IMG/VR virus record: IMGVR_UViG_2563366856_000003 | Coordinates: 1 to 35,867 of that record | Source of the DNA: a virus | Lineage: Duplodnaviria > Heunggongvirae > Uroviricota > Caudoviricetes | DNA: 35,867 nucleotides | Reading direction: 5' to 3' (one strand) | Shown here: positions 1,535-34,101 of the stretch, piece by piece | How the letters are laid out: every line of letters begins with the position of its first letter | How positions within the stretch are numbered: the stretch's first letter is position 1 | Program-made: the position numbers and the translations under genes | The notes under the pieces: generated by a model | The model's database searches: none | The model's input: only the letters and a program-made list of their open reading frames with translations | What the model was told of the DNA's origin: nothing

Positions 1535-1597
1535 CGCGTAATACAATGAAATAAAAGGATTTATTTCTGGTCACGTCCACACATTGACCACATCGAC

Positions 1598-1621
1598 AAA
1601 AAAGCCCCTCGACTGAGGGGC
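1598..1621 (-). terminator. Intrinsic terminator downstream of ogr
   Basis: On minus strand: stem AGCCCCTC / GAGGGGCT with 4-nt loop followed by TTTTTT, immediately after the ogr stop. Confidence 0.6.
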
Positions 1622-1634
1622 TTCCTGTTTGTAA

Positions 1635-1853
1635 TTACATCCACATAATTTGCTGCCCTGACGGCAACGGGTGCGGTCTTACGGCGTGGACTTCTCCCGG
1701 CTTCACGATGTATCGCTGTACCGACTCATAAGTGATGAACGTGGCGCTGCAATTCACGTTCTGACACTGGTGATAACGCTCTTTTGTCGTGTCAGTGATA
1801 TAGCGGCTTGTACGCGCATGTGCGGCATGCTGGCATAAAGGACAATGAAACAT
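1635..1853 (-). CDS. ogr: Late gene transcriptional activator Ogr (C4 zinc finger)
   Basis: 72-aa product MFHCPLCQHAAHARTSRYITDTTKERYHQCQNVNCSATF... from internal ATG of the 93-aa ORF; matches P2 Ogr. Confidence 0.9.
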   Translation of the reverse strand: MFHCPLCQHAAHARTSRYITDTTKERYHQCQNVNCSATFITYESVQRYIVKPGEVHAVRPHPLPSGQQIMWM

Positions 1854-1934
1854 CGCGAGCACCTCTTCCGGTTTTGTTGATGGTGCCATTTTAGTTAATT
1901 TATTCTTATAAAACAAACAGATAAAATAAAAACA

Positions 1935-3098
1935 TCACTCATCATCTTCTGTTTCGTACTCCACATCAGAAAGCCTGACCTCAAGCTCCAAGGACGTCGT
2001 GAAGCCGCTATTATTCAGAAAATGTGTCACCTTAGTGATTGTCCAGTCCTGCTCGTCTATGACGCGCTTAAAGCCTGACACTTTAACCGGTGTTTCCGTG
2101 TAAATATCAGCACGACCGGTAGCCAGACTGATGGAGAACTCCGCAACGCCCCGTTGCAGCTTATCCCACTTCGCCTGAGCGGCGCGCATGGCCTGCGCTT
2201 TCGTGGCATATACCGTGGTCAGGGCAAAAACGTTGTCAGCCTCACCGGCCATGTATTCACCTTCACGCGCTTCCGGTACTTTAGGCGCTTTCTTCTGCCT
2301 GACCGGTTTCGCTTTCGGGTGCTCCAGTGCGCGCAGGTGTTTCTCTTTCTTTTTGCGTTTCAGTTTTACCTTCTGCTTTTGCGGTTTCGGGTCTTTGGTG
2401 TGTAACCACTTTGCCGTTACGCCTGTATAGGCTCCGCGGTCAGCAATCGCAAAATGATGACGGTCGCCGTCGCTGCGGGTGATGGTAATCTGCGGGATTT
2501 TTTTACCGCTGGCCGTCACCCCCTGCCCCGCTTTGAGAAACAGCAGTTTTCCCATTTTTACCGACACCTCACCGCCGTTGCGTTCAGCAAGACGGGTCAG
2601 GAATTTCGCATCAGACTCCTGCGACTGGTCGATGTGCGGGATTTTAATTCCTGCCAGTGACGGCGCGACACTGGCTTCCAGCCTGTTACGGGAGGCTATC
2701 GCCTCAACAATCGCACCGAGCGTGGTGTCATGCCATGAGCCTTCACGGCGGGAATTGAGCGTCCCGCGAAAATCTGCACTCCGGGCGCGGATGGTGACCA
2801 CATCCGGTGCGCCCCGGTGTTCAACCTCATCAACGGTGAATTTCCCTTTGCATACCAGGGCAAAACCTTTCCAGCCGATATACACCGTCAGGACAGCGCC
2901 ACGAACCGGCAGCCCGACCTGCCCGTCGGCATCGTTCAGTTCAATATCAAGCTGGTCAGCCTCAAAGCCCCGGTTATCCGTCAGGGTCATACTCATCAGA
3001 CGGTCGCTGATATTGCCGGTAATATCCCTGCTGTCGAGCATCAGCATGTAATCCGGCGTCAGCGTACTGCCTGCATCAAATGTCAGCGCATCCAGCAT
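1935..3098 (-). CDS. D: Tail protein D
   Basis: 387-aa ORF, same length and N-terminus as P2 gpD; position ogr-proximal. Confidence 0.95.
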   Translation of the reverse strand: MLDALTFDAGSTLTPDYMLMLDSRDITGNISDRLMSMTLTDNRGFEADQLDIELNDADGQVGLPVRGAVLTVYIGWKGFALVCKGKFTVDEVEHRGAPDVVTIRARSADFRGTLNSRREGSWHDTTLGAIVEAIASRNRLEASVAPSLAGIKIPHIDQSQESDAKFLTRLAERNGGEVSVKMGKLLFLKAGQGVTASGKKIPQITITRSDGDRHHFAIADRGAYTGVTAKWLHTKDPKPQKQKVKLKRKKKEKHLRALEHPKAKPVRQKKAPKVPEAREGEYMAGEADNVFALTTVYATKAQAMRAAQAKWDKLQRGVAEFSISLATGRADIYTETPVKVSGFKRVIDEQDWTITKVTHFLNNSGFTTSLELEVRLSDVEYETEDDE

Positions 3099-3577
3099 TA
3101 TTCCGCCCCCGTCATCCCCGTGAATTTAGTCGCCATACTGCCAGCCTTACCGATGAGCGATTCTGCCTGTTTACCGATATCGCCATAAAGCGCGGCCAGT
3201 GATTCATCCACGCGGGTGAGTGACAGCGTAAAATCAATTTTCCGGGGTGTGCCGTCTGCAAAGAAAATACTCCCTGTTTCACTCACCCTGCTGATGACAT
3301 ACATGCCGTAAATCATGCCTGTGCCATCCAGCAACGGCCACGCCCGGCCTTCCTCTGCCATCAGTCTGAGCGTGGTCATCGTCAGCTTGCCGCCGGTCAG
3401 TTCGGGATAAAGCACACCGGCAAGCGTCATGTTTTCCTCACCAACGCCGAGAAACTGGTAGGCATCCCGTTTACCGATACGGGAATTTGACGGCCAGCGA
3501 TAATCTGATTCACGCTGCATGGTCTGGTGTGGCAGCGTCTGGCGCATAAAAACAAACATACCTAACGCGAGCATCAT
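3098..3577 (-). CDS. U: Tail protein U
   Basis: 159-aa ORF matching P2 gpU; stop/start overlap with D. Confidence 0.95.
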   Translation of the reverse strand: MMLALGMFVFMRQTLPHQTMQRESDYRWPSNSRIGKRDAYQFLGVGEENMTLAGVLYPELTGGKLTMTTLRLMAEEGRAWPLLDGTGMIYGMYVISRVSETGSIFFADGTPRKIDFTLSLTRVDESLAALYGDIGKQAESLIGKAGSMATKFTGMTGAE

Positions 3578-3591
3578 TTTTCGTCACCTCC

Positions 3592-6039
3592 TTAACCGTC
3601 ATGCATCATGCTGGCACGGGCGCGCGCACGTTTATCCCGCTCGTATTTTTCGAGCGCATCCTGTAACTGGCGGTCAAGCTGTGTCCCCGGTGCAGTACCA
3701 CCCGTCAGGCTGATGTGATATTCGTTTTTACTCTGGTCCACATAAGAGCGGCCAGCCGGTGCCGTGACCGGCTGATAAGCCTGATAACCTGCATAAGAGC
3801 TGGTCGCCGGAATATAACCACCGCTGCCATACGTGGCGGCTTGAGTTCTGGCGGCGGTCTGGTCAAGTGTGTCTGACTCTTTGTTGATAACACCGAGTTT
3901 TTCCAGTACCCAGTCAATACCACTGCGCAGTTTGTTGAACGCATTAAGCGGCAGCATCAGCGCGTCAGCCAGTGCCTGCCCGAACATGACGCCCGTGTCA
4001 CGGCAACGGTTCAGGGTGTCCTGGGTAGCTTTGACCGGGGCAATCAGGTTTTTAAACCACTGCCACGCGGCCTGTAACTTTTCACCCAGCCAGTCAAACA
4101 CCGGCTTAAGTGGCGTGAACAGTTCCCCCACTGGCGCAAATGCTGCTTTCAGCCCTTCAACCACACCGCCAAAGAATGCGCTGACAGGCTCCCAGTATTT
4201 ACGGATAAGCAACGCCCCGGCGACAATGGTGGCCACCACGGCCACAACCGGCCAGCTAATCGCCCCGATGGCGGTCATAACAGCACTGCCAACCGTCGTG
4301 AAGACTGCCCCCATTGCGCCTGCTGCCGCGATGATGGCATTAATGCCGGTGATAACCGGCCAGGCTACAAGACCAATTGCACCGATGATGCCAGTAAGCG
4401 CCAGTGCACCACCGACAATAAGGCCGATGGTTGACGCCAGTGATTTGTTTTTCTGGATCCAGCCGTCGAGTTTTAACACATACTTTGTGGCCGTCTGCGT
4501 GAGCTTACGCAGTGCGCCTTCCTGCTGGTCAAACAGGTCAGTCCCCACCGCCTCATAAGCGGACTGAAACTCCTTAAAGTCACCGCCGAGGTTGTCCTGC
4601 ATGATATTTACCAGCTCTGCGCTCTTTCCGTCTGAGGCTTTAAACGCAGCGGTCAGTTTGTCCAGCTTTCCGGTTGAGGCGGCAGTCATCAGCACGGCGG
4701 CGGCTGAACTGGCCTCCTCCCCGAAAATGGTTTTCATGTATTCAGCCTGCTGGGCAGTACCGAGCCGGTTTTTCTCAAAGCTGGCCTGCATTTCTTTCAG
4801 AATGGTAAATACTGGCCGGGTGTTTCCCTTACTGTCTGAGGTTTTCACGCCAAGCTCTTTCAGTGCATCCCATGCTTTTCCCGTCGGTGCCTGCAGGCGG
4901 CTTAACACGGCACGGCTTCCCGTCCCCGCCATTGAACCGGTAATTTTTGCATCATGCAGCGCCCCGACCATTGCGGCGGTTTCTTCAATGCTGACACCAG
5001 CATTTTTTGACACAGGTGCGGCATAGGTCAGCGCATCGCTCATGCCATCAAAATCGGCGGCGGTTTTGTTCATCGTCATGGAGAGAACATCCCCGATATG
5101 AGCGACCTTATCGTTTGAAAGCTGAAAGGCGGATTTCATCCCCATCAGCAGGGCGGCGTTTTCTTCCATCGTGCGGCGGTTCGCCAGCGCCATGTTCAGC
5201 GTGACCGGCGTTGCCGCCTGAATGGCATCAACATCCCCACCCGCTTTCGCGATGATAATCTGTGCACCGGCTGCATCATCTGCCGAGGCGGCGGTATTGT
5301 CGCCGAGCTGGCGCGCCTGCTTGCGTAGCGCGGCCATTTCGGCAGAGTCTTTTTCCACACCGAGCACGGCCTGTAATTCTGAGTTTTTCTGCGCAAACTC
5401 ATAACCGGGCATCAGCAGCTTAACTCCGGCCATCGTTCCCGCCGCCGCAATACCCACACCGGCAGCGCCCACCGAGGCCATATTTCCGGCCAGTTCCTTT
5501 CCGACCTGATAACGCTGTTTTACTGCATTAAGTTTTGCCTGTTGCGCACTGACACGCGCCAGCGCATCACGCTGACGGTTAAGCTGTGTGGTGGTTTCGC
5601 TGATACGATTTTTCAGCCCTCGTTCATCATGCGCCAGATTACGGGTATTAATACCCGCCTGACTCAATTCCTGACGCTGGCGCTGTACCGACAATCTCAG
5701 GCTGTTATATTTCGCCTGTAACTCAGACGCGTTTTTACGCGCGGCTTCCATTGCCTTTGCCTGTGCATTTGTCGGTCGTTCAGTATTTGTAAACTGGACA
5801 GCCAGAGCTGCGGCTTCCTGTCTGGCTTTTTTCAGTTCCTGACCAGTCACGGCTAGCTGTGCACTGGTCTTGCGGAATCCCTCAATACGGGATGCGTGAC
5901 CGTTCAGCTCGCGCAGCGATTTTTGTGTTTCCCGGATGTCCCCCGACAGCGACTTACTCGCTGTGCGGATGGATTTAAACGGGCGGGATGCCTGGTCAAC
6001 AGCCCTGAGCAATACCTTTAATTTTACATTGTTACTCAT
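3592..6039 (-). CDS. T: Tail tape measure protein T
   Basis: 815-aa ORF, coiled-coil N-terminus, Gly/Ala-rich hydrophobic middle; same length as P2 gpT. Confidence 0.95.
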   Translation of the reverse strand: MSNNVKLKVLLRAVDQASRPFKSIRTASKSLSGDIRETQKSLRELNGHASRIEGFRKTSAQLAVTGQELKKARQEAAALAVQFTNTERPTNAQAKAMEAARKNASELQAKYNSLRLSVQRQRQELSQAGINTRNLAHDERGLKNRISETTTQLNRQRDALARVSAQQAKLNAVKQRYQVGKELAGNMASVGAAGVGIAAAGTMAGVKLLMPGYEFAQKNSELQAVLGVEKDSAEMAALRKQARQLGDNTAASADDAAGAQIIIAKAGGDVDAIQAATPVTLNMALANRRTMEENAALLMGMKSAFQLSNDKVAHIGDVLSMTMNKTAADFDGMSDALTYAAPVSKNAGVSIEETAAMVGALHDAKITGSMAGTGSRAVLSRLQAPTGKAWDALKELGVKTSDSKGNTRPVFTILKEMQASFEKNRLGTAQQAEYMKTIFGEEASSAAAVLMTAASTGKLDKLTAAFKASDGKSAELVNIMQDNLGGDFKEFQSAYEAVGTDLFDQQEGALRKLTQTATKYVLKLDGWIQKNKSLASTIGLIVGGALALTGIIGAIGLVAWPVITGINAIIAAAGAMGAVFTTVGSAVMTAIGAISWPVVAVVATIVAGALLIRKYWEPVSAFFGGVVEGLKAAFAPVGELFTPLKPVFDWLGEKLQAAWQWFKNLIAPVKATQDTLNRCRDTGVMFGQALADALMLPLNAFNKLRSGIDWVLEKLGVINKESDTLDQTAARTQAATYGSGGYIPATSSYAGYQAYQPVTAPAGRSYVDQSKNEYHISLTGGTAPGTQLDRQLQDALEKYERDKRARARASMMHDG

Positions 6040-6459
6040 TCGTGTTTCCGCTTCGCCGGAGCGCCTTTTCGCGCCATGTGATGAGTTCGCTCAGACTCAT
6101 GGGATACAGTTCTGATGGCGGCCAGTGAAATATCACTGCCACATCCGCCATCAGGTCATCGACCGACAGATTTTTCGGAAACGTCACTGCACCGAGTTCG
6201 GCGACAAAAAACCGACCACCTTACCGGCCAGCGCCACAAGGTCAGGCAGTTCCAGCGCGGCGACTTCCTGCTCGGTCAGCATCGGTGCCGTCATGCGCGG
6301 CAGCACTTTAATCAGTGCATCGACTTCGGAGTTTGCGACCGCAGCCAGACTGACACCGCGCAGCGTCCCGGCATTGGGTTTCATCAGCGTGACCTGTTCG
6401 ATGACCTGCTCACCACGCTTGACCGGATTGTCCAGGGTAATCACATTTTCTTTGTTCAT
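6032..6459 (-). CDS. E+E': Tail assembly chaperone E+E' (programmed -1 frameshift extension of E)
   Basis: Slippery heptamer TTTTTTG on minus strand (plus 6205-6211) near the 3' end of E; the -1 frame is open from there to a TAA at 6032-6034, giving about 142 aa, as in P2 E+E'. Confidence 0.75.
6184..6459 (-). CDS. E: Tail assembly chaperone E
   Basis: 91-aa ORF MNKENVITLDNPVKRGEQVIEQV... matching P2 gpE. Confidence 0.9.
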   Translation of the reverse strand: MNKENVITLDNPVKRGEQVIEQVTLMKPNAGTLRGVSLAAVANSEVDALIKVLPRMTAPMLTEQEVAALELPDLVALAGKVVGFLSPNSVQ

Positions 6460-6516
6460 GGTTTTCTCACTTCTGAATCGGGGGTTAACCGGTCAGCCTG
6501 GCTGACCGGATGAAAA

Positions 6517-7035
6517 TCACAGGCCGATATTGCGGCGGTGTTGCTCCAGCCGGTCGACGCCGTTCACCTTCTCAATCATGTTGATGGTGTCAATTTCGAC
6601 CAGCTCCTTACCGTCCATCGTCAGCCGGAAATAGGTGCAGACCACGGAGATTTTCGACTCGGTGTCTTCTCCCTGCTTACCCTCGCCGGTGTCGATTTCT
6701 TTCTGACGTCCACGCATGACCACTTCGACGGCCACCGTTTCGCCGGTATCGTCGCGCTGGTAAGAGCCTGCAAAACGAATCGGCACGGCATCCACACCGG
6801 TTGCGGCGTAAAGCTCCCAGATAACCGAATCCGGGAATCCACCGAGCGACCACTCCATTGACAGCGCATCGTCATCAAGGCCGAGGTCTACCGGTGCGCT
6901 GCCGTTCATCCCCGCACCGCGATAGTTTTCGAGCTTACGGGTCAGTTTTGGCAGCGTGACGGACTTTGCAACGCCCTGATAGCTGTAGCCGTTCAGAAAG
7001 ACGTTCATTAACTTGAGTTTGCGCGGCATTGCCAT
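6517..7035 (-). CDS. FII: Tail tube protein FII
   Basis: 172-aa ORF matching P2 gpFII. Confidence 0.95.
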   Translation of the reverse strand: MAMPRKLKLMNVFLNGYSYQGVAKSVTLPKLTRKLENYRGAGMNGSAPVDLGLDDDALSMEWSLGGFPDSVIWELYAATGVDAVPIRFAGSYQRDDTGETVAVEVVMRGRQKEIDTGEGKQGEDTESKISVVCTYFRLTMDGKELVEIDTINMIEKVNGVDRLEQHRRNIGL

Positions 7036-7047
7036 CGGTCAGGCTCC

Positions 7048-8238
7048 TTAATTGCTGTTAACCGAGGTAACCAGACTTGCCAGGTATCTGGAAGTAATAC
7101 GCTGGCGCAGGGTCAGGTTTTCGAGAGGAGGCACCGGGGTATAGTCGTAGTCGATATACAGTTTTCCGGCCTTGAGGGTTTCCGCATCATTGGCTTCTTC
7201 ACTGAACCAGCATGTGCCATCCACGATATAACCGTTGTTTTTCAGTTCGCGGAATTTGGCATTAATGCCATCAATGATGTCACGAATCAGCGTTGCGGTA
7301 ATTGGCTTATCAATAGCCCACATGTGCGCCTCGGCCATCGTGTCGGCCAGTACCTGCGCGGTGCGGGTGTAGCTTTCAAAGAGGAACAGCGGGTCATCAG
7401 AGCAGGTACGGTTACCCCAGAAGCGGAAGCCGTCGCGGCGAATCAGCGTAGTGATGCCTGACTCGTTAAGCAGGTCAGCATCAGTGCCGGACTTCTGCAA
7501 ATCCCAGAATACAGAGGCGCTGATGCCGGTAACACCATTTACCCCGACGTTGGACAGCGTTTTATGCCAGCCCTGCTCCTGGTCGATTTTGGCACGCAGC
7601 CCCAGCGCACGGGCGGTGGCATACGCGGTGGCAGTGGTACTGGTAACCGTATCCCATGCGAGGAAATCCGGCCAGATGACCATCAGCTCACGCTGGCTGA
7701 AATTCTGACGGTAGGCTTTTGCCTCGGAAATGGTTTTACAGCCCCATGAGCTGATATACCCGAATGCATTCAGTTCCTGGCATACCGATGCCAGTGCGAC
7801 GGCAACCTCTTTGGTATCCAGCCCCGGCACACCAAGAATGCGCGGTTTAACGCCGGTAACCGACTCAGCCCCCATCAGGGCTTTCAGTCCGGTGTACTGA
7901 CCGTTTTCGTCAGTGGTGCCGATGATATTGGAAACGGTCTGCGCGAGTTTCGTTTCCTCGTCGTCGCCGGTGCCGTCTTCCACACGCACGACAACAGTGA
8001 CCGGTTTTGACTGGTCGGCGATAGCCTGCAACGACGCCGCCAGCGTGCCTTTTTTACCGGCCTTTGCAATTGCGCTCTGTACATTGGTAATCAGCACCGG
8101 TTTATTGACGGGGAAGGTTTCCGCATCCGCATCGCTGGCCGTGCAGACCATGCCGACAATGGCCGTGGATACGGTGGAAATGACGCGGGTGCCGTCGTTA
8201 ATCTCCAGCACCTGCACGCCGTGATGATAGTCACTCAT
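7048..8238 (-). CDS. FI: Tail sheath protein FI
   Basis: 396-aa product from internal ATG (MSDYHHGVQVLEINDGTRV...) of the 446-aa ORF; matches P2 gpFI start and length. Confidence 0.9.
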   Translation of the reverse strand: MSDYHHGVQVLEINDGTRVISTVSTAIVGMVCTASDADAETFPVNKPVLITNVQSAIAKAGKKGTLAASLQAIADQSKPVTVVVRVEDGTGDDEETKLAQTVSNIIGTTDENGQYTGLKALMGAESVTGVKPRILGVPGLDTKEVAVALASVCQELNAFGYISSWGCKTISEAKAYRQNFSQRELMVIWPDFLAWDTVTSTTATAYATARALGLRAKIDQEQGWHKTLSNVGVNGVTGISASVFWDLQKSGTDADLLNESGITTLIRRDGFRFWGNRTCSDDPLFLFESYTRTAQVLADTMAEAHMWAIDKPITATLIRDIIDGINAKFRELKNNGYIVDGTCWFSEEANDAETLKAGKLYIDYDYTPVPPLENLTLRQRITSRYLASLVTSVNSN

Positions 8239-8851
8239 CCGTTTAACTCCGTGGTTAATGGGTGCAACTATTTTCTGTTGTGCGAAGCATGAGACGCTAT
8301 TTGACCTGGCTGGGCAGTGGATGAAACAACAGATAAAGAAAAAGTGGGCAACTTGCCCGCCTCTATTTATTGCGGTATACCCAGCCATTCAGGATTTGTT
8401 GCTACTCATAATTACCTGCAAAGAAACAAAGAAAAGATGAAAATACAAGCTGTCTGGTACAAAGAAATCCATCAGACTTCCAACACCCCATACATGTGCC
8501 CCCACCACGGTATGCTGCTCCGCTTCCCTTTGCGGATATTTTCTATCCATCGATTTTCAGCCAGGATATGCACGTGCGCGATGAAGAATGTCACACTACT
8601 ATTGCCTTGTAAGCCCAGTTCCCGGTAAGAATAGCAACCAGCATCTGCGCTGCTACAGCACAAAGCGAGTGTATATTTGGGGGGAATATCCTTCATAAAC
8701 TGTTCGACGAAACCACGCTGTGGTTTCTCTTGTTATCAAACCGAGTGGCATTATCACTAGTTTTACTAAATTACCAACTTCACTGTGAATGATATGCATG
8801 ATAGAATCAGAAAATTAAATTATACAGATCTTAATCAATTCCGCGTTTTAT

Positions 8852-8877
8852 GCCCGTTGCTTCCACGGGCTTTTTTT
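8852..8877 (+). terminator. Intrinsic terminator (plus strand) inside the FI-H cargo island
   Basis: GCCCGT-TGCTTCC-ACGGGC hairpin followed by TTTTTTT. Confidence 0.5.
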
Positions 8878-8972
8878 AAAAAATCACCTAAAATAAATAA
8901 TTATATTCACTTTTATTCTAATACAGAATAGAATATGAAATCGTCAATTTGTACCATTAATTTTCAAATCTT

Positions 8973-9002
8973 CCCCGCCTTCGAGAGAATGCGGGGCTTT
9001 TT
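8973..9002 (+). terminator. Possible second intrinsic terminator (plus strand)
   Basis: CCCCGC / GCGGGG stem with a long 12-nt loop followed by CTTTTT; weaker than the first. Confidence 0.3.
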
Positions 9003-9150
9003 ACATGAGTACAACTTCACATTAACTATTTTTATACTTATAATTTGCTTTGCTTAAAAATGTTCAAAATGTACGCCAACATATTTAATTATGCTGATTT
9101 TATCACCAACAAAACTATCACCATGCAAACAATCCCTCGTGTTAGTTATA

Positions 9151-9166
9151 CTGCAATGCATTGCAG
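9151..9166. promoter_or_regulatory. 16-bp perfect palindrome upstream of the phase-variable ORF (candidate regulator binding site)
   Basis: CTGCAATGCATTGCAG is its own reverse complement; lies about 115 bp upstream of the ATG at 9281; a TATAAT hexamer is at 9212-9217. Confidence 0.35.
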
Positions 9167-9280
9167 CATGATGTGCTGATGACTTCATTAAATCATGTCA
9201 CAATGTTCAGATATAATGCTTCATGTTATGAGATAGCATTCTGAATATTCATAAACATTATTAACGTTAGAGGTTGCATA

Positions 9281-9515
<235 letters not shown>

Positions 9516-9544
<29 letters not shown>

Positions 9545-10649
9545 TTGCCCTTATTATACTATAAAAGGCAATACTATAAAAGGCAACACTAAAAAAGAAA
9601 ACATTTCATCTTCTGCTGTTTTAACAACAGCCCTGCATACTTCTCTTCTAAAAATCACAACGGTAATTAATGAAATTAATTCTATTTATCCCTTTGATGT
9701 CTCAGTTGTTATTCCGGTTCACAACCGAGAAACCCTTATTCTCGAATGCATTAAATCTTTAAACAATCAGACTATAGATAAAAATTGTTTTGAAGTTATT
9801 TTCATTGATGACTGTTCCACTGACAGGAGCATTGCCGCCATTGAATATAACATTTCGAGAGAAATAAATTATCGTATTATCCGTAGAGCAGTTGGTTCAG
9901 GGAATGCATCAGCGCCGCGAAATGAGGGAATAAAATCCGCAAAAGGTCGCTATGTGTTTTTCTTAGACTCTGATGATTCCATTCACTCTGACTTACTGTC
10001 CGATGGTATTCAGATGGCTTATAAAAACAATAGTGACATTGTATATTTCAAGCAGGTTTCCTCTACAGGGAGAGGGGTTCCTGTACGCCCATTTAAGGCA
10101 GACACGAATAAAGCAGATATTATAAAAAACCATCTTTTTAGATCATTAAAAATCTTCAAGTTCTTTAAAAGAGAGTTGCTAATCAATAACAACATCTTAT
10201 TTAACCCATCAATTTCAGTCTATGAGGATATGCTTTTTTCTTGCCAGAGCCTAACTGTAGCTAATACGATATCTATACTGGCAAGAAAGGGCTACTACTC
10301 TCTGAATCGCCATGAAGAACCACATCTATCTAAAACATCTTTCTCCATTAAACAAAGAGCCTTGGTATTACAAACAGGTTTGATTTATATCTTATCAAGC
10401 AATAAAAATGAAGCAGAAATAGTAAAAATGTTTAATGCATGGCTGGTTATTTGCGTTGAGCACTTGGCATCCATATTATCCAAAAAAAGTTTAACAACTA
10501 ATGAGAAGTCTCACGTTTTTAACTTGATACATAAATCACTCTTACCATATACAGGGCTTGTAAATGAGTCCCAAATATATCCCGCACAAAGAGAGCTTGT
10601 CAGTTGCTTAATCTGTGGAGATTATTCTTCTTTTTGCGAAAAAATATAA
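9516..10649 (+). CDS. Family 2 (GT-A fold) glycosyltransferase, probable surface-polysaccharide-modifying lysogenic-conversion gene
   Basis: 377-aa ORF with VVIPVHNRE...IFIDDCSTDRS and DSDD (DXD) motifs typical of GT2; the annotated start is a GTG immediately after the repeat with no usable RBS and there is no in-frame ATG upstream of the domain; AT-rich. Confidence 0.8.
9558..9602. repeat. 15-bp tandem repeat (about 2.5 copies) in the glycosyltransferase 5' region
   Basis: ACTATAAAAGGCAAT / ACTATAAAAGGCAAC / ACTAAAAAAGAAAAC, encoding TIKGN-TIKGN-TKKEN. Confidence 0.8.
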
Positions 10650-10688
10650 AAACACTTAACTACAGATACTCCTAACTTTGTATCTGAC

Positions 10689-10718
10689 GCCCCTCACCCT
10701 AAATTAAGGGTGAGGGGC
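10689..10718. other. Perfect 11-bp GC-rich hairpin between the convergent glycosyltransferase and tail-fibre genes
   Basis: GCCCCTCACCC-TAAATTA-GGGTGAGGGGC followed by A8 on plus strand; not a canonical terminator for either strand (U-run precedes the hairpin on the minus strand). Confidence 0.6.
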
Positions 10719-10860
10719 AAAAAAAATAATTATTTGATGTTATATTTATATGCCATCACATCTTTTAACTCCAGTTGTTACGGGGAGGACAGTGACTCGT
10801 ATCAACTAAAGTTTGATCTGTAGATAACACTATTTTAAGCAGATACTCATTAAGGCTTGT

Positions 10861-13719
10861 TTATTCTGAAGTCTCCAACTTCATCAAACGATGATTTAAG
10901 TCAACAAAGCGTTCCATTAACAAATCCACCTGGCTGACAACAGCACATAGACACCACCAGAGAAGCTCCTCTTTCCGGAAGCGATAACGGCTTCCTGCTT
11001 CGGTTGCAGGGCGAACAAGAACCCTTTCCGCCTGTCGGGTAAGCACACGAGTTGTCCCGCTCAACAGCTCCCCTTCATCCGAATAAATCGCTGGCTGAAC
11101 CGGAATATCTTCATACTCTTCCGGTATATCTTCGTACTGTGCCTCCTCCGCTTCCCACGAATCCAGACAAAATGCGCTGTATTTCCGCCAGTCCAGACCG
11201 TGTTTCTCCATCACCGCTATCGCGGCCTGGACTGTCGGCCCGGCGTGCAGACGCGCGTCCTCGCCCTCCTCCTCAATTCTCTGTAACCAGCGCCACACGC
11301 CCGGAAGCCGTGCTATTTCTGCAAATGCCGCGTTTTCGGCTGCCGTCGCATCGCGCGGTGTATCCTTTAACGTCGCATCCGACACAACGGTCGGCGAGTT
11401 GCAGAGATACACGCTCCGGAACGCTTTGTTGGGCGCACCCAGGTCGCTGGTATTGTTAACCGATGGCCGGAATGCACCGTTAATATCTGTATCCATCTGC
11501 ATGAATGCAGTGCCGTCACTACGGGCTGCAATTACATAAGCGTCAGCAGAATCGTCATAAATACCCAGATTCCCGGCTGTTGATACCTGGAAAGCTCCCG
11601 CCTTCAGCGTGGTGCTGATGGCCATGCGCTTCTGGGTTTCGTCATCCGATTTAATATTCACGCCCTGCAGGTATGCCACATTCCAGCGATTTGGCGATGA
11701 CCCCAGATTCATTGCCTTGTCCTGGTCGGGATGAAATGCCGGCGAGACCGGACTCAATAATACAGACCAGGTCTCACTGCCATCGGTACAATAAAGCCTT
11801 GTGCGCCCCGCCGACTGAGTATCGTTCATTGAGTAAAGGTTAATCCCGCCACCGCTCAACAAATCCACGTCAGCGCGTATTTCCAGACAATCGTGCACGG
11901 TGTTCAGTCGGTGTTTCCACTGAACGAAGCGGCCTGTGTATTCTCCGGTTCGGAACGCATCCCCGTACAAACGAAAAACAGCAGCAGAAGTGTCTGTATC
12001 CGGAGCCTCCTTTCTGACCTCAAATAACGGGCGATGCGAGCGCAGATTCTGCTCATAGGCTGCCACCTGGAAGTCTTCATTGGGTGACAGGGCAATATTT
12101 ACAGCATTGGGACTCAGAAAAAGGCTAGCATGGCTGTCAGGAAACGCCACGCCGGAGTCCACCAGATAGCCTGTGCCGTCGTAAGCCTCCACGGAAACCA
12201 CAGCTTTGCTGCGTTTTGTCGCCACGCCACACGTATAAGACTTCGTGGCATCATATTTCGTTGCAGCCGCCGTTCCATATGCTGTAGGCGTCCAGTAAGA
12301 TGGATTCACCGGGGAACGGCCAGAAAAATTTGTTGCACGTGCTGCAAAGTATGCCCCCTCAAAAGAAACCACATCGGCTGTCTGACACCAGAAATCCATA
12401 TCGAGCAGATACAGTTTTCCGTTATGAAGAGCCAGCCCTTCGGCTTCCTGCAAAACGGGATACCCCAGCTCTGCATTCCCCAGCATTTTCTGGCGGCCAT
12501 ACCTGGCACGAACGCCATCCACATTGAACTGTCTGACAACTTCGCCCGTTGACAGGTTATATACAACAATGCGGTGAGTCAGAAATACGCCTGTATAACC
12601 GTAATAAGCAAACAGATAATGACCATCGCTGGCCATCCCCTGAAATGCCTGCGACACCATTGACTGGGTGGACAGATAAATCCGGTGTTTAAACGTCAGA
12701 GAAGCGCGATCGAAAACATAAACTGTGCGGCGGTCATCCCTGTTGTAATGAAGATGGACGGCTTCATTACTTGACTGAACAATCAACAGGCTTCCGTCTA
12801 CCGACAATGCCACCGTTATAATTTCATCCCCGGTAAAAAAGTCAGAGGTGAAAATCTCCGTACGGGTGACATCTGTCAGACTGGTGTCAGCCCCATTCCA
12901 GTTGATGATATTCACACCCTTGCCGTCAGCGGTCGGGGTATACAGCATCACGCGACCGTCTTCACATACAGCCCCGATACTCTGGTGACCAATATCAGCG
13001 AAAACGGGAGAAAACGAAATGACCGTCGGGTTTTCGTTTTCTCCGTCAGGGTTAAATGTCGTTTCAACAATCCTTACGCCACCCGATACAGGCTGATGCA
13101 GAAACATTCTGGTTCCCTGCGGCGTATCACAGATACAGAACCCCTGACTCATATTATCCGCACCGTCAAAAATCCCGGCGTAGTCAATATCGTGGACAAC
13201 TTTATGCTGAAGAACCACATCATCAATGACAGTACGATGAAAACTGGATATGGCTTTATCGACGTAATCCTGCGTCGCCATCACCGTGCTGGCATCAATA
13301 CTCAGCTCAACAGACGCCACGTTACTGACAATAATAACCATGCGGCAGGTCTGCGCACGCCCGGAGCCTTCAGCCAGTTCAGGCTTATAGCTTTCTGCCA
13401 TGTTAGCGACCGCAATCAGTGTTCCGGCATCGTCATACAGACCAAGTTCACGCATCCAGAAGCCGCCCACTTCTGGCGGTACAACCAGTTCAGCCACGAT
13501 ATAGTTTTTATTCTTGTTATCCACGCTGACTTTATTCAGGGCGTGACGCCAGACCTCATGCACCAGTTTCGTCTGACCAGCATCCGGCACCGGCAATTTG
13601 CCATTACCGTCACCCACGGCCATTGCAGACAGGGTTACTTTTTTCCCGCCGGGGACAGTGGCGGCTGCCAGCTTTGCGGCTCCGGCAGTAGTGATAACGG
13701 TTTTAAATTTCGTGCTCAT
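10861..13719 (-). CDS. H: Tail fibre protein: gpH-like N-terminus, non-P2 central/receptor-binding region, candidate C-terminal intramolecular chaperone domain
   Basis: 952-aa ORF; first about 150 aa match P2 gpH (MSTKFKTVITTAGAAKLAAAT...GGFWMRELGLYDDAGTLIAVANMAESYKP), the rest is unrelated; C-terminal region contains an S-D-x-x-x-K motif (SDATLKD); no gpG-like assembly gene follows. Confidence 0.85.
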   Translation of the reverse strand: MSTKFKTVITTAGAAKLAAATVPGGKKVTLSAMAVGDGNGKLPVPDAGQTKLVHEVWRHALNKVSVDNKNKNYIVAELVVPPEVGGFWMRELGLYDDAGTLIAVANMAESYKPELAEGSGRAQTCRMVIIVSNVASVELSIDASTVMATQDYVDKAISSFHRTVIDDVVLQHKVVHDIDYAGIFDGADNMSQGFCICDTPQGTRMFLHQPVSGGVRIVETTFNPDGENENPTVISFSPVFADIGHQSIGAVCEDGRVMLYTPTADGKGVNIINWNGADTSLTDVTRTEIFTSDFFTGDEIITVALSVDGSLLIVQSSNEAVHLHYNRDDRRTVYVFDRASLTFKHRIYLSTQSMVSQAFQGMASDGHYLFAYYGYTGVFLTHRIVVYNLSTGEVVRQFNVDGVRARYGRQKMLGNAELGYPVLQEAEGLALHNGKLYLLDMDFWCQTADVVSFEGAYFAARATNFSGRSPVNPSYWTPTAYGTAAATKYDATKSYTCGVATKRSKAVVSVEAYDGTGYLVDSGVAFPDSHASLFLSPNAVNIALSPNEDFQVAAYEQNLRSHRPLFEVRKEAPDTDTSAAVFRLYGDAFRTGEYTGRFVQWKHRLNTVHDCLEIRADVDLLSGGGINLYSMNDTQSAGRTRLYCTDGSETWSVLLSPVSPAFHPDQDKAMNLGSSPNRWNVAYLQGVNIKSDDETQKRMAISTTLKAGAFQVSTAGNLGIYDDSADAYVIAARSDGTAFMQMDTDINGAFRPSVNNTSDLGAPNKAFRSVYLCNSPTVVSDATLKDTPRDATAAENAAFAEIARLPGVWRWLQRIEEEGEDARLHAGPTVQAAIAVMEKHGLDWRKYSAFCLDSWEAEEAQYEDIPEEYEDIPVQPAIYSDEGELLSGTTRVLTRQAERVLVRPATEAGSRYRFRKEELLWWCLCAVVSQVDLLMERFVDLNHRLMKLETSE

Positions 13720-13729
13720 TGTTTCTCAC

Positions 13730-14260
13730 TTATCCGGGATAAACAGTAATAACATCACCATCACAGACCACACCGCCTGTATACAGATAGCCGGGAATGT
13801 CCTGGATAATGTTCAGACCGATAAGGTGGCGACTTGCGGGTTTGGCATCGGCAATCAGCCGTTCCATTTCCAGATACATCTCCTCCGTGATGCCGCTTTC
13901 CAGTACGCCGATATCAAGGCGGAATGTTCCGGGCGGGTCGTTTGTCTCCCACCATTCCTTTACGTTAATTAGATAGCCTAGCGGCTCCACCACACGCCGG
14001 ATTGCACCTATAGTGCCTTTATGACAGTGGATGAAATACGCATCGCGGATAACGGCGCGTTTTGTCGCTTCCGGCCACTTTTCATCCCATCTGTCGACCG
14101 AAAACGCCCACGCCAGCCACGGCAGCAGATTTGCCGGGCAGGTGTCCGGGTTCCACAGCTCACGAATACTGACCGGTGTTTTTTCAATTTCCGCACAGGC
14201 TTTTGCGGCGGCGACCTCAAGCGGTGATGAGCCGGTCGGCAGCAGTCGCGAATCACTCAT
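13730..14260 (-). CDS. I: Baseplate assembly protein I
   Basis: 176-aa ORF matching P2 gpI. Confidence 0.95.
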   Translation of the reverse strand: MSDSRLLPTGSSPLEVAAAKACAEIEKTPVSIRELWNPDTCPANLLPWLAWAFSVDRWDEKWPEATKRAVIRDAYFIHCHKGTIGAIRRVVEPLGYLINVKEWWETNDPPGTFRLDIGVLESGITEEMYLEMERLIADAKPASRHLIGLNIIQDIPGYLYTGGVVCDGDVITVYPG

Positions 14261-16145: not shown

Positions 16146-16228
16146 GCGTGTGAGATTGCACAATATATAAAAGTTATGCTATCTGGATTCATTTGTAGAA
16201 CGACCATACAACATTCGAGGAGAGCGTA

Positions 16229-17014
16229 ATGTTCAGTGATAATGTGACTAATGCGTGGTGGTTTATCTCTTTGTATCTATTTTTATTAATAGCATTAACA
16301 TTTATTACCTTTGGTAAAAGTAATCTTATGAGGTTTATTGCACATCATTTCAATTTTGAGTATTCAGACAGAAAGTTAAAAATGCTCGACAAAAAATGGC
16401 GCGACATTCAACTATTTAAAATAATTAACGGAATCAATGTATCAGGCATCGAAGATGTGAGAATGATACAGCAGGGGCTGATTGATGGAAAACTAAAAAC
16501 ATCGTATTTTTTTCTTACTCGCTTCTGGGGTGACATAACAAAACCACCACACATAATTAAAACAATAATTGTAATTCTGTCCAGCATTATTTATATTCTC
16601 TTCGCATGTTATATACACAACAAACAATCCGCTATAGTAAGAGATGCCATAGGCATACCATATAAAAATATGATGTACTATGTTTATAGTGACAAAGTTC
16701 TTTTATCCTTCAACAATAAAACAGTTGAATTCAATAAAACTTATAGCCTTGCCGATTGCAAGAGGCTACGAAACATATTTATAAAAGACACACTTCCTGA
16801 GATCGCCTGCAATAAGCTCTTACAGCTAAACGAGGAGGACTCGGAATGGTTAAGTCAGGAGATTAAAGATAATAACAGCCAAAAAAAAGCATTATTAATA
16901 ATATCCCTCATCTATTTCATTTCAGGTCTGGTTATATTCCTGTCATATACAAAATTCCTTTACGCCAATAAGAAGGTTGTAGAATACAAAGCATCAAATA
17001 AAAATCACTCATAA
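16229..17014 (+). CDS. Hypothetical membrane protein (three predicted TM helices), AT-rich moron opposite to the late genes
   Basis: 261-aa ORF with strong GGAGAG Shine-Dalgarno; hydrophobic segments at N-terminus, middle and C-terminus; lysine/asparagine-rich; occupies the P2 orf30 position between V and S. Confidence 0.7.
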   Translation: MFSDNVTNAWWFISLYLFLLIALTFITFGKSNLMRFIAHHFNFEYSDRKLKMLDKKWRDIQLFKIINGINVSGIEDVRMIQQGLIDGKLKTSYFFLTRFWGDITKPPHIIKTIIVILSSIIYILFACYIHNKQSAIVRDAIGIPYKNMMYYVYSDKVLLSFNNKTVEFNKTYSLADCKRLRNIFIKDTLPEIACNKLLQLNEEDSEWLSQEIKDNNSQKKALLIISLIYFISGLVIFLSYTKFLYANKKVVEYKASNKNHS

Positions 17015-17019
17015 GCCTC

Positions 17020-17056
17020 TAAACATTGAGCGACCAGCATGGCCGCTCAATGTTTA
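17020..17056. other. 13-bp perfect inverted repeat between the convergent moron and S genes
   Basis: TAAACATTGAGCG ... CGCTCAATGTTTA with 11-nt loop; no flanking U-run. Confidence 0.6.
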
Positions 17057-17085
17057 ATTGCGCATCAGCCTCTGCCTGGATAAAA

Positions 17086-26453: not shown

Positions 26454-26595
26454 CGCCCGCTTCGTGGGGCGGTTTTAATGCAGATGCATTATGAGCCCTG
26501 AGCTGCGCCTAACGTGACACAGTTCACGAGAAAAATAGGAATTATCAAATGCAATTTCATGCAGATAGAGAGGCATGAGATCCCGAAGCATATAT

Positions 26596-27948
26596 TCAAC
26601 CCTCTGCCGAAATATTTCTTTGGAGAAATGCTCTAATTTTTTGCCTGAAAGCCTCACATTCATCAGGCTTTAACCTCTCAAGGTATTCAAAAACCCTAGT
26701 TTCATCCCAGCCGTTGTTATAGGTTTTCACTACCCCTCGATAAACTTGCTTATCAAGTTTATCGTTACCTCTAGTTGTAACTCTCGGGATCGATTCATCT
26801 TGGCCGTATGCTTGATAGAAATCCTTCTCAACGCTTTGGAAAGGTATGCATAAAATATTTTCACCTCGAGCATGCCTTTGACCTAATTGATCTCCGTCTA
26901 ACACTGAGATCACATTCTGTTGAGTCGTGAGAAAGCTCTCTCTCTCATTACGACGCATTAAATCAATGACATTAGTTCCTCCACCAACATATATTATTTT
27001 ATATTCGTAGAAGTAATCATTCCCAGGAGCATTAATTATATATTCTAAGAAATTTTGCAGAACTTCATCTTCAGTAAGAATGTACTTATCCCATCCTTTA
27101 AATCCAAAAAGCGTACTTTTTATATAATTATATGATCGATTTGTAATTGTAGTTCCAGCATCACCTTCGCACATATAGTACAATTCATCATCATTCAGCG
27201 TTTGCATTAAAGCAAGTGAATGTGTTGTGAATACAATATTCACCGAGTGTCTCTGACAATATTTCCTTAGCACTGCTATAAGATGGACTTGCGCCGAAGA
27301 GTCTAGTGATATATCTATCTCATCTATGACAATGAATTTTCTTTTGAGCTCAATCATTCTAAATAAATTCAAAATAAAATACTCACCCGAGCTAAAGTAA
27401 TCCTCCCTTATGTATGTTCCGTTCTCATTCAATCTGAAATAGAAAATTTCATTTTTTACAGAAAATGCTTTAAGATTATTGTAAGAAGAAGACTGATATA
27501 CCTCATTGAGTATATTTATCAAATCCTCGGGAACGCTATAGCTTTCAAACGCAATACTTTTTCTAAGTTCAGTATCAATTTTACTAAGTGTTGGGAAGTT
27601 ATTGAACCTCATTCCATGAGGAATGGGCAACTCGACATAAAGATTGGATTTTATATCTGCTGGAATTATTTGCTTAGTATCTATTACCTTCAAATTCTCA
27701 TCATAGACATATACTATATCTTGATCATTAATATTATATACTATACTACTGTCAGGATTGAATATATATCTAGAAGATGTCTTTATGAATGTATCTGCTG
27801 ATTGTAAATTTTTAATTGCTTTGATTAGCGTTGTCTTTCCAGCACCGTTCTTTCCTACAATGCAAGTCAGTTTATTTTCAGAAAGATCAATAGCAAATGA
27901 CATATGTTCAACATGCTGGATTTTCGAGATCTCAATGTTTATTTTCAT
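26596..27948 (-). CDS. OLD-like ABC-type ATPase with C-terminal Toprim-like region (candidate effector of RT-associated defence system)
   Basis: 450-aa ORF: Walker A GKNGAGKTT, signature-like SSGEYF, Walker B FIVIDEID, H-loop TTHS, then TEDE ... VLDGDQ resembling Toprim Glu and DxD; ATG one base after the RT stop; AT-rich. Confidence 0.8.
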   Translation of the reverse strand: MKINIEISKIQHVEHMSFAIDLSENKLTCIVGKNGAGKTTLIKAIKNLQSADTFIKTSSRYIFNPDSSIVYNINDQDIVYVYDENLKVIDTKQIIPADIKSNLYVELPIPHGMRFNNFPTLSKIDTELRKSIAFESYSVPEDLINILNEVYQSSSYNNLKAFSVKNEIFYFRLNENGTYIREDYFSSGEYFILNLFRMIELKRKFIVIDEIDISLDSSAQVHLIAVLRKYCQRHSVNIVFTTHSLALMQTLNDDELYYMCEGDAGTTITNRSYNYIKSTLFGFKGWDKYILTEDEVLQNFLEYIINAPGNDYFYEYKIIYVGGGTNVIDLMRRNERESFLTTQQNVISVLDGDQLGQRHARGENILCIPFQSVEKDFYQAYGQDESIPRVTTRGNDKLDKQVYRGVVKTYNNGWDETRVFEYLERLKPDECEAFRQKIRAFLQRNISAEG

Positions 27949-27949
27949 T

Positions 27950-28939
27950 TTAATTTACATTCTTGTAAAAAAGCATATCGACAATCGTATTTCCGTATTT
28001 TCTCTTTAGCTTATCGAGATAACTCTTATCAATTGTGTTTATATGATTCAAAAGACCAGAAACTGTATTAATGCCCTTTTCCAAGATCTCACTATCATTC
28101 AATCCGCTAGTTTTAACCTTAGGATCTTTTATTATAGAATCTATAAATTTATCTTTATCCGTTACATAAAAATGAATCAAATGCTCAAGCTTTCTTTTTA
28201 TTTTAATATCAACAGAGACTATCTGAGACGGTAAAATAACCATCCCCAGCAGCTTAATCTTACTGCCTTTTTTAATCAATTTAGTTTTTGCTGAGTTTAG
28301 TTTGAAATGTCCCTTCCCAAACTCACCCAGCAGGTCACTTACTACAGAATGAATATTCTCAAAGCCCTCATCATTTTCAGAGGAAATAATAATATCATCT
28401 GAATAGCGTGTGAATATATATTCATGGTTAATACAATATTGCTGCATCTCAACATCAAAGTCATATAAACATGCATTGCTGAAAGCTGGTGATGTCGGGA
28501 ACCCTACAGGCAACGAATTATCGATAATAATATAATCTAAAATTTTATCCAAGTGTATATTTAAATCGGAAATGGGAACGTTCGATAAGTTATCAACTAA
28601 AACTGATCGTGCATATTCACGAGTTATCGATGGGAAAAAGCTTTTAATATCAGTATTGAAGAATATCTTACTACAGGCGTGAAGTTTTACTGCATCATAA
28701 GTGCTGCTTCCTTTTCTATACGAAAACACAACATCCTTATTTACTTTCAAGTATGAAAGAACAAATTCATTTATGAATTTGTGATACTCTTTTAGTTTAG
28801 AAGTGGGCTCAGCAATTAACCTTTCATCAAAGGTTATAAATTTAGTTTGTTGAAATGGTTCAAACGAAAGAAAGTTTTGAAAGGAATCTTTTTCGAAGAA
28901 TGCAATATTGAAGGCTTTTTCGAGACTAAGGGGTTTCAT
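27950..28939 (-). CDS. Reverse transcriptase, retron-type size
   Basis: 329-aa ORF with RT motifs NTDIKSFFPSI (motif A-like), LPVGFPTSPAFSNACL (motif B'), YSDD (YxDD catalytic motif C); AT-rich; sits at the P2 old/tin position. Confidence 0.85.
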   Translation of the reverse strand: MKPLSLEKAFNIAFFEKDSFQNFLSFEPFQQTKFITFDERLIAEPTSKLKEYHKFINEFVLSYLKVNKDVVFSYRKGSSTYDAVKLHACSKIFFNTDIKSFFPSITREYARSVLVDNLSNVPISDLNIHLDKILDYIIIDNSLPVGFPTSPAFSNACLYDFDVEMQQYCINHEYIFTRYSDDIIISSENDEGFENIHSVVSDLLGEFGKGHFKLNSAKTKLIKKGSKIKLLGMVILPSQIVSVDIKIKRKLEHLIHFYVTDKDKFIDSIIKDPKVKTSGLNDSEILEKGINTVSGLLNHINTIDKSYLDKLKRKYGNTIVDMLFYKNVN

Positions 28940-29265
28940 CGTTGGCTGAGCTTTTGTTTTTTGAGTTGAATGGATTCTAAGATGAATGCTTTAACTCTCA
29001 GTCTTTCCTCACCCCAGACACCCTCCCTTCGCAGACTTTACTTCTTGTACATACCTTCTCTCGAAAGAGAAGGCAGTACAAGAGCAACACTATATAAAGG
29101 CCTGTAGAGGCCAACATTTATGACTGGAGATGCTCCTAGTCGTTGGCATAAAAACACTTTAAACCAGATTATGAGCATTTACAACATTTCAAGCCGTCGA
29201 ACGCAGCCCCAATCAGAAAAGAACTCACACGGCCATCATAACATCATGATTTAGATGGATATAAA
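28940..29265 (-). ncRNA. Candidate retron non-coding RNA (msr-msd) region upstream of the RT
   Basis: Non-coding 326 bp between A stop and RT start on the RT strand with several stable stem-loops: composite 15-bp stem 29044-29082 with 4-nt loop (UUCG on the RT strand), hairpins at 29099-29112 and 29110-29147; a1/a2 terminal repeats not identified. Confidence 0.45.
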
Positions 29266-33112: not shown

Positions 33113-33303
33113 TTCCAGACCCTCCGGCTTTTCAGAAAGGTCAGAGCCTTTTTTAACGGACTCTGTTTTTTGGTGCGGATAATGATTCCCTTACGCCCCT
33201 TACCGTGGGTGATGGTGAAGTCAATCGCCCTGGGGCTTTCGTTACGCAATAACTGAGCAATACAACGAGGCTCATTCATACGGTTCTCCTTAACGTGGTT
33301 CAC
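33109..33303 (-). CDS. Hypothetical small basic protein (P2 orf78 position)
   Basis: 64-aa ORF between cox and B, overlapping both. Confidence 0.5.
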   Translation of the reverse strand: MNHVKENRMNEPRCIAQLLRNESPRAIDFTITHGKGRKGIIIRTKKQSPLKKALTFLKSRRVWK

Positions 33304-33565: not shown

Positions 33566-33686
33566 CTGCTACGATTCTCCCTTAGTGCTTCTAATGGCTC
33601 CTAATGGCTAATTATTGCCTAAAAGGATAACTCCAGAAGCACAACATTTCACACTATCAGCAAGAAATTACGCAATCGGAGTAATT
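33566..33686. promoter_or_regulatory. Immunity switch region (divergent Pe/Pc promoters with candidate C operators)
   Basis: Intergenic region between divergent cox and C; direct repeats CTAATGGCT at 33591-33599 and 33601-33609 (10-bp phasing) resemble P2-type direct-repeat operators. Confidence 0.45.
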
Positions 33687-33986: not shown

Positions 33987-34101
33987 CAATTTATCGTGAA
34001 TATATTCATCACAAGTGCCTACTATTGGTGGCTAAATTTCAGCCACCACGAAAAAAGCGATTAGTAGTAGCAAAAAAAAGTACCACTCGGAGGGTTTTCT
34101 G

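Follow-up and report, generated by a model that had tools for sequence, protein, structure and literature searches.

Within the 35,867-nt stretch of DNA analysed here (the window, in whose numbering all coordinates are given unless another locus is named) lies a P2-like (Peduoviridae) prophage of Escherichia coli, integrated beside yegQ and cyaR, and the subject of this analysis is its chimeric tail-fibre or tail-spike gene. The gene is an open reading frame (ORF) at 10861–13719 on the minus strand that begins with ATG and encodes 952 amino acids (aa). It matches PHROG 19921 ("tail spike protein") from end to end, its product is 99.9% identical to REL606 ECB_RS10545 (WP_000104717.1), and it occupies the position of gpH in a P2-type late operon, with the genes for gpV, gpW, gpJ and gpI upstream (16163–13730) and the FI sheath gene downstream. 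The upstream neighbour, encoding the baseplate protein gpI (13730–14260, minus strand), matches PF09684 (Tail_P2_I) at 2.3e-55, and the P2 backbone on the downstream side is represented by the gene for the tail sheath gpFI (7048–8388, minus strand), whose product carries Phage_sheath domains.

Alignment to the whole genome of L-413C, a P2-like phage, shows 94–98% DNA identity along the prophage backbone, with few exceptions. Homology covers 1546 to 8362, the latter being the point in the sheath gene at which it resumes downstream of the fibre, and the largest gap, 8363–13257, takes in the distal 85% of the fibre gene and reaches to the FI promoter region. The other segments without synteny to L-413C are 16146–17083, 26490–29283, 33281–34087 and 34227–34887, in addition to the host flanks.

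The gpH-type anchor and its junction with unrelated sequence

The first 151 residues of the fibre (13267–13719, minus strand) form a P2 gpH-type baseplate-attachment domain, classified as a tail-collar fibre N-terminal domain (PF12571, 1.3e-57) and, as in gpH proper, encoded directly after gpI. In BLASTP the protein is 93% identical to L-413C gpH over aa 1–163 with nothing significant further on, and at the DNA level homology to L-413C ends at 13258, which corresponds to nucleotide 462 of the gene or aa ~154. Neither the gpH-like shaft and tip nor the downstream gpG (Caudo_TAP) that complete a P2-type fibre system follow, and there is no similarity to gpH past aa 163. Residues 152–169 (13213–13266, minus strand) make up the recombination junction or linker, just upstream of the motif LQHKVVHDIDY (aa ~170), at which conservation sets in sharply when the fibre is aligned with homologues bearing other anchors. 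A preliminary description of this DNA had assigned only the first ~150 residues to P2 gpH, and these breakpoints confirm it. The distal region, which the same description had called unrelated and 800 aa long, is indeed unrelated to gpH and measures about 790 aa.

A C-terminal domain of the S74 chaperone type

At the opposite end of the protein, sequence and model support the identification of aa 780–952 (10864–11382, minus strand; 173 aa) as a Peptidase_S74-type intramolecular chaperone domain, predicted to be released after the trimer has folded. PF13884 (Peptidase_S74, "chaperone of endosialidase") matches aa 780–842 with 38.0 bits against a curated cut-off of 22 (E 2e-9). The motif SDxxxK occurs once in the protein, as S780-D-A-T-L-K785 (11365–11382, minus strand; context VVSDATLKD) with 172 residues after S780, and alignment of the dyad columns marks it as a candidate Ser-Lys catalytic dyad and cleavage site. 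When the PDB chains were all searched with the fibre sequence, the only matches were S74-bearing fibres and spikes, namely T5 pb1 (4uw8, E ~1e-15), 7y5s, 6eu4, 9vvr, the K1F endosialidase chaperone (3gw6) and phi29 gp12 (3gud). The alignments place S780 and K785 opposite the Ser and Lys of the SDxxxK in 7y5s, 6eu4 and 9vvr, and these two residues also align with 4uw8 and 3gw6, where the Ser column holds an Ala that we take to be an engineered Ser-to-Ala substitution.

The predicted structure leads to the same domain. An AlphaFold2 (AF2) model of aa 690–952, computed as a monomer, has a mean predicted local distance difference test score (pLDDT) of 84.4, exceeding 90 over most of the chaperone, and all 10 of its Foldseek matches in the PDB with E<=1e-3 are the chaperone domains of 4uw8, 3gw6 and 3gud. 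The next match is the ICA domain of eukaryotic MyRF, a known relative of the phage intramolecular chaperones. The domain makes up the last 173 residues of the fibre and is preceded by a pre-cleavage distal tip (aa 701–779; 11383–11619, minus strand) homologous to the tip of the T5 L-shaped tail fibre pb1, with which aa 710–779 align (phmmer to 4uw8 from aa 710, E 9.7e-16). The S74 identity is thus supported by a Pfam score above the cut-off, by the dyad columns, by the fold matches and by a ratio of nonsynonymous to synonymous substitution rates (dN/dS) of about 0.1–0.18. The preliminary description had singled out SDATLKD and the ~170 aa behind it as reminiscent of an S74-like chaperone; the motif proves to be the only one of its kind in the protein, and both the profile search and the modelled fold agree with that suggestion.

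By analogy with cleaving homologues, the chaperone probably removes itself by autocleavage. The domain could instead be kept for folding and trimerisation only and never be cut off, or it could be inactive in this allele owing to a change in its terminal helix. Such a change has in fact taken place. The slot of gpG and Z-fun between genes H and FI is occupied by a low-GC (~35%) moron (8666–10923), delimited by its composition profile, by the lack of L-413C homology over 8363–13257 and by breakpoints with two other alleles of the spike, one from a P2-like prophage of ST131 strains (locus L014) and one from a Mu-like prophage (locus L015). Homology to both alleles stops at 10924, 63 nt short of the fibre stop codon, the C-terminal 21 residues differ, and GC content falls to 0.33 in 10861–10923 from 0.54 in the preceding 300 nt; the moron insertion therefore rewrote the last 21 codons (10861–10923, minus strand), which encode the end of the chaperone terminal helix.

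The dyad itself also shows some natural plasticity. Its Ser position is occupied by Ser in 58 of the collected relatives and by Cys in one, P0042, a protein with a T7-type anchor that has Cys in place of the nucleophilic Ser at residue 889 (APTIVCDARLK) and whose close relatives P0121 and P0267 have Ser. Even so, we judge a retained or inactive S74 domain to be quite unlikely in the window. Both dyad residues are preserved, with the canonical distance between them and in the canonical sequence context, the region of the ARxHxG motif can be aligned with that of homologues that cleave, and the chaperone evolves with a dN/dS of 0.10–0.18. The replaced C-terminus is still modelled by AF2 as one long helix with high confidence, and many lineages have retained this allele at 99.9% identity.

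No separate fibre assembly gene

A six-frame tblastn of the whole window with L-413C gpG yielded noise only (best E 0.29), and scans with Pfam, PHROGs and PADLOC found no tail-fibre-assembly family among the ORFs of the segments that lack L-413C synteny. These ORFs encode a family 2 glycosyltransferase (GT2), a PHROG 2407 protein, a type I-B retron pair, a repressor-like regulator and small products without an assembly-family match. A gpG elsewhere in the prophage is thereby ruled out, as the tblastn and the scans together cover all non-P2 DNA, and the earlier claim that no separate assembly gene is present holds. In the plaque-forming phage Pollock, an annotated terminator comes directly after the homologous spike gene, lysis genes on the opposite strand come next, and no assembly gene lies between.

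A separate helper may still be required, in the form of a small membrane protein of PHROG 1443 or of some other unrecognised ORF, and the window fibre would then be non-functional without it. Intact PHROG 1443 ORFs of 94–95 aa begin 3 nt after the spike stop codon both in the ST131 P2-like prophage (L014 6337–6621) and in the Mu-like prophage (L015 6328–6615), and the window keeps only a diverged remnant, a 74-aa ORF at 8472–8696 on the minus strand (PHROG 1443, 3.2e-7) that is 68–70% identical in DNA to those versions and split from the spike by the moron. We consider PHROG 1443 an unlikely hidden chaperone, and the dependence of the fibre on any such helper very improbable. Judged from their sequences, the PHROG 1443 proteins look as if they had two transmembrane segments, unlike tail-fibre assembly proteins, which are soluble; the ORFs match no Pfam or PHROG assembly family; and the homologous spike of Pollock has no such gene after it.

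A propeller platform and tower between anchor and tip

The central part of the fibre was modelled by AF2 as a monomer with a pLDDT of 88 and consists of a propeller and beta-sandwiches. Residues ~170–450 (approximate limits; 12370–13212, minus strand) form a five-bladed beta-propeller "platform", the presumed receptor-binding domain, and residues ~451–700 (likewise approximate; 11620–12369, minus strand) an all-beta "tower"-like region that was delimited by its strand pattern and by the span of the Foldseek matches and is conserved in relatives to about aa 700. The best Foldseek matches to the central model are the receptor-binding proteins (RBPs) of phages phi11, 80alpha, P68 and NF5, with generic five-bladed propellers ranking after them. 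The platforms of phi11 Gp45 and the NF5 RBP are the top two, and the 80alpha RBP (6v8i) and the P68 tail fibre (6iab) match with E values of 5.4e-11 and 3.2e-10. Alignments to the phi11, 80alpha and P68 proteins run over ~580–595 columns, that is, past the propeller into the tower. The fibre thus shares the five-bladed platform of the phi11 Gp45 type; it does not share the triple coiled-coil stem before the platform or the lack of a cis chaperone, having a gpH anchor and an S74 C-terminus.

An exhaustive HMMER search with aa 160–780 against 1.84 billion cluster representatives gave 144 matches at E<=1e-3, mostly 25–35% identical over aa ~182–700. A profile search of a word-indexed protein database with a trimmed alignment, in which E. 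coli fragments dominated the candidates, added two distant relatives. A few residues, notably H245, Q360, E425, E427 and W444, are invariant down to ~25% identity and are spread across different propeller strands, a spread that would fit His, Gln, Glu and Trp side chains lining a single axial pocket. The fibre itself scores below the gathering threshold of PF21311 (Phage_RBD_prop; 11.6 bits against 23.7), which makes it a remote relative and not a curated member. PF21311 is matched by 11 of 53 family members at E<=0.01 (best 1e-6) and Peptidase_S74 is present in 26 of the 53, so that a propeller platform combined with a cis chaperone is a recurrent natural architecture.

Two members of the family, P0044 and P0045, end in a short unrelated C-terminus after the propeller and tower. 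At the P0045 locus (L009 5001–7585), a 68-aa ORF of PHROG 33685 overlaps the spike stop codon and might encode a substitute for S74 that acts in trans.

The preliminary description had guessed that the central region is either a receptor-binding or an enzymatic, tailspike-like domain. The first half of that guess stands, in the shape of a propeller platform with tower, and the beta-helix tailspike does not. A beta-helix depolymerase was rejected because the AF2 model is built of a propeller and beta-sandwiches, with no beta-helix among the matches listed. An endosialidase (GH58) was rejected as well, given that End_tail_spike (PF12219) matches only weakly (aa 660–686 only, 15.1 bits against a cut-off of 25) and that five-bladed folds match best, with the phi92 endosialidase ranking 31st.

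Since the nearest structures are binding platforms, we favour, by analogy, a central region that binds its receptor rather than one that catalyses a reaction on it. The propeller could nonetheless be enzymatic, breaking down or altering the polysaccharide of the host surface as a glycosidase, lyase or deacetylase would, comparable to endosialidase propellers and tailspikes, and not a passive, lectin-like platform. We regard this as possible though doubtful. Both of the closest structural matches are platforms of RBPs, and phi11 Gp45 recognises N-acetylglucosamine (GlcNAc) on wall teichoic acid in a role that is proposed to be binding only, the word "enzymatic" being absent from the paper on its structure (PMC4901313). 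No glycoside-hydrolase family of Pfam was matched by the fibre, and identity to the enzymes is 5–14%.

Relatives of the distal module and selection on it

The module downstream of the junction is not confined to P2-like prophages. In the N4-like podophage Pollock, gp75 (a tail spike) is 77% identical to fibre aa 161–949, and the module as a whole occurs on at least five different N-terminal anchors: P2 gpH in the window; a diverged P2-type anchor in ST131 strains (L014); a Mu-like fibre anchor encoded after Mu Gp45–48 or YmfQ baseplate genes (P0001 with 609 member sequences, L011 and L015); PF18668 (Tail_spike_N) in Pollock and its relatives; and the T7 tail-fibre domain PF03906 in P0042 and P0121. 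Together with the break in P2 homology at aa ~154, this distribution bears out the module swap, with its effect on host range, that the preliminary description had proposed. The exchange is also seen in the ST131 allele, which differs from the window fibre with a dN of 0.31 in the anchor and of 0.003 in the module.

The distal module is under purifying selection, with dN/dS values (Nei-Gojobori) of 0.10–0.25 in the propeller and tower, tip and chaperone parts. It is found in 87 of 5,426 complete E. coli genomes and is chromosomal in every case; for the gene itself the count is about 86 of these genomes. The ORF of the window fibre is intact and 99.9% identical in many genomes, including those of E. 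coli B strains, although the prophage copy of strain REL606 (L001, REL606 2097251–2116109) is heavily deleted, its portal, tube and gpD genes being pseudogenes. An ABC-three-component system adjoins the REL606 copy, in which the spike gene and the glycosyltransferase moron are still intact. The fibre protein is already in databases, under generic names only. We found no description of this fibre of E. coli B and P2-like prophages in the literature, a search that left subscription papers largely uncovered and is weak evidence for novelty.

A probable mosaic receptor-binding protein

We consider it highly probable that the fibre is a mosaic P2-type RBP, in which a gpH anchor is joined to a mobile cassette of propeller, tower, tip and self-cleaving S74 chaperone that replaces both the distal fibre and gpG. 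The anchor, comprising the first ~150 residues, would plug the fibre trimer into the P2 baseplate. From aa ~160–170 onward, the gpH shaft and tip, along with gpG, would have been replaced through horizontal exchange with a self-contained host-recognition cassette, whose propeller platform (aa ~170–450) presumably binds a surface glycan in the pocket of invariant residues. By analogy with K1F endosialidase, T5 pb1 and phi29 gp12, the three chaperone domains of a trimer may nucleate trimerisation and set its register, after which the S780/K785 dyad would cut the chain at Ser780, releasing a fragment of ~20 kDa and leaving a mature fibre of ~779 aa. A separate gpG would not be needed because the S74 chaperone is built into the fibre. 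The analysis shows what the domains are, where the breakpoints lie, that gpG is absent, that the dyad is conserved, that purifying selection acts and that the module is mobile; trimerisation, autocleavage, glycan binding and the identity of the receptor are inferred.

Several points weigh against this account. The structure predictions are of monomers, and proteins of this kind function as trimers. The propeller pocket could be catalytic and not purely binding, and the last 21 codons, derived from the moron, might in theory compromise the chaperone's terminal helix. In two other genomic contexts a PHROG 1443 membrane protein is tightly coupled downstream of the spike, where the window has only a diverged remnant. 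Two relatives, P0044 and P0045, carry the propeller module without any S74 domain, so that propeller and tower can evidently fold with other help. Lastly, the E. coli B copy lies in a deleted and defective prophage, which makes the activity of the fibre in that strain moot.

A convergent, phase-variable glycosyltransferase

The gene next to the fibre, as the preliminary description had noted, is a glycosyltransferase convergent with it. This GT2 gene lies within the moron at 9281–10649 on the plus strand and matches PF00535 (1.7e-28) and PHROG 22739 ("GtrB-like O-antigen conversion", 1.3e-31). Its 5' region contains a perfect tetranucleotide tract, (CAGC)x19.8, at 9435–9513 on the plus strand (Tandem Repeats Finder, 100% matches), which in the window splits the gene into an 87-aa stub (9281–9544) and a glycosyltransferase ORF (9516–10649), corresponding to a phase-OFF state. 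Translation from the ATG at 9281 reads on into the glycosyltransferase domain only at unit counts divisible by 3. The gene is ON in CPww7 (18 units), ATCC 11303 (21 units) and B-DolR (45 units), and OFF in REL606 (7 units), the window (19 units), B-RalR (34 units) and B (35 units); ON alleles are annotated in RefSeq as single genes of 453–485 aa. B-RalR and B-DolR are laboratory derivatives of E. coli strain B, and the unit counts differ among them. A tract of variable length and a frame open only at multiples of 3 are hallmarks of slipped-strand phase variation.

The tetranucleotide tract is closely followed by a second, in-frame tandem repeat of 15 bp (ATACTATAAAAGGCA x2.8) at 9556–9597. The ON alleles with 18 and 21 tetranucleotide units encode 454 and 453 aa, respectively, which implies that the copy number of the 15-bp repeat varies too.

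Phase variation through tetranucleotide repeats is typical of Haemophilus, Neisseria and Campylobacter and, to our knowledge, uncommon in E. coli. Beyond the Enterobacteriaceae, a search with the ON allele of the glycosyltransferase (L004 1119–2483) found its nearest relatives among GT2 proteins of ~430–440 aa in Psychrobacter and in Campylobacter coli and related species, with ~47% identity over 70%. Composition and relatives fit a foreign, low-GC origin of the moron. We found no paper on this phase-variable glycosyltransferase, with the same large gap in the coverage of subscription papers and the same weak bearing on novelty.

The moron occurs in about 29 genomes and adjoins this spike in every case inspected. 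It is conceivable, if unlikely in our estimate, that the spike and the glycosyltransferase form a functional pair, in which the (CAGC)n-switched GT2 would add a sugar to the glycan seen by the propeller pocket and so flip a lysogen population between receptor-masked and receptor-exposed states. In that case no phi11-type platform would have been characterised before this propeller in a phage that infects Gram-negative bacteria, and the propeller might be catalytic. If true, the pairing would represent phase-variable lysogenic conversion and superinfection exclusion.

Other features of the prophage

At the left end of the window, the CyaR/RyeE small RNA (Rfam RF00112, 100.7 bits) lies at 1445–1530 on the plus strand, between yegQ and the start of P2 homology at 1546, a position that probably marks the attachment site. 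A low-GC moron between the gpV and gpS genes (16229–17014, plus strand) encodes a 261-aa protein of PHROG 2407, and the REL606 copy has the same moron. Adjoining the portal gene is another low-GC (31%) moron (26596–28939, minus strand) that carries a type I-B retron pair, a reverse transcriptase (RT) and an ATPase-Toprim protein, both recognised by PADLOC (RT_I-B, 4.5e-110; ATPase-Toprim_I-B, 3.4e-179). In an Rfam scan at gathering threshold CyaR was the sole match, with no retron noncoding RNA model matched and no family in 26596–28939.

Significance and comparison with known systems

The fibre consists of known parts joined by a known evolutionary route and involves no new mechanism. Current concepts are unchanged by it because the replacement of an assembly protein by a cis chaperone and the modular exchange of RBPs are both established. 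Its interest lies in the exact breakpoints, which show that a P2-type phage can change its host range in one step by importing a cassette, and in the cassette's own folding helper, which lifts the usual need to match a fibre tip with its assembly protein. The cassette circulates among Peduoviridae, Mu-like prophages, T7-type anchors and N4-like podophages of E. coli, and this wide circulation, combined with a chaperone of its own, makes it a convenient, chaperone-independent building block for engineering the host range of phages and tailocins. It also extends to coliphages the phi11-type five-bladed propeller platform, which has so far been solved only for staphylococcal phages.

The system that the cassette displaced is represented by gpH and gpG of P2 and L-413C. 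The prophage fibre resembles gpH in its N-terminal 150–160 residues and in its genomic position after gpI; the shaft and tip are unrelated, gpG is absent, and folding help would come in cis from the S74 domain. For the distal part the closest known system is gp75 of Escherichia phage Pollock (Schitoviridae; YP_009152176.1), which shares the whole distal module from the propeller to the S74 chaperone, tower and tip included (fibre aa 161–949 against gp75 aa 157–944); the DNA is ~80% identical over 1.7 kb. Pollock differs in being a lytic phage, in having a PF18668 Tail_spike_N-type anchor suited to an N4-like podovirus, and in the annotated terminator, with no moron, after the gene.

Among solved structures, phi11 Gp45 (5efv), along with the RBPs of 80alpha, P68 and NF5, provides the platform fold at 11–14% identity to the prophage fibre. 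Gp45 has a coiled-coil stem, lacks an S74 chaperone and belongs to phages of Gram-positive hosts. T5 pb1 (4uw8) is the best solved sequence relative of aa 710–868 and the top Foldseek match to the C-terminal model, with a pre-cleavage tip, an (S/A)DxxLK site and a helical chaperone in common. It differs as a long fibre without a propeller platform, and the E. coli prophage chaperone has the longer C-terminal extension; pb1 binds polymannose O-antigen, a function presumably unlike that of the prophage fibre. The endosialidase endoNF of K1F (3gw6; PF13884) offers the nearest parallel in overall plan, with an anchor, a propeller-containing head, a stalk and a self-cleaving Ser-Lys chaperone whose dyad columns align with those of the fibre (chaperone Foldseek E 3.5e-10). 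It parts from the prophage fibre in the propeller, which in the prophage matches five-bladed folds best and gives no evidence of sialidase activity.

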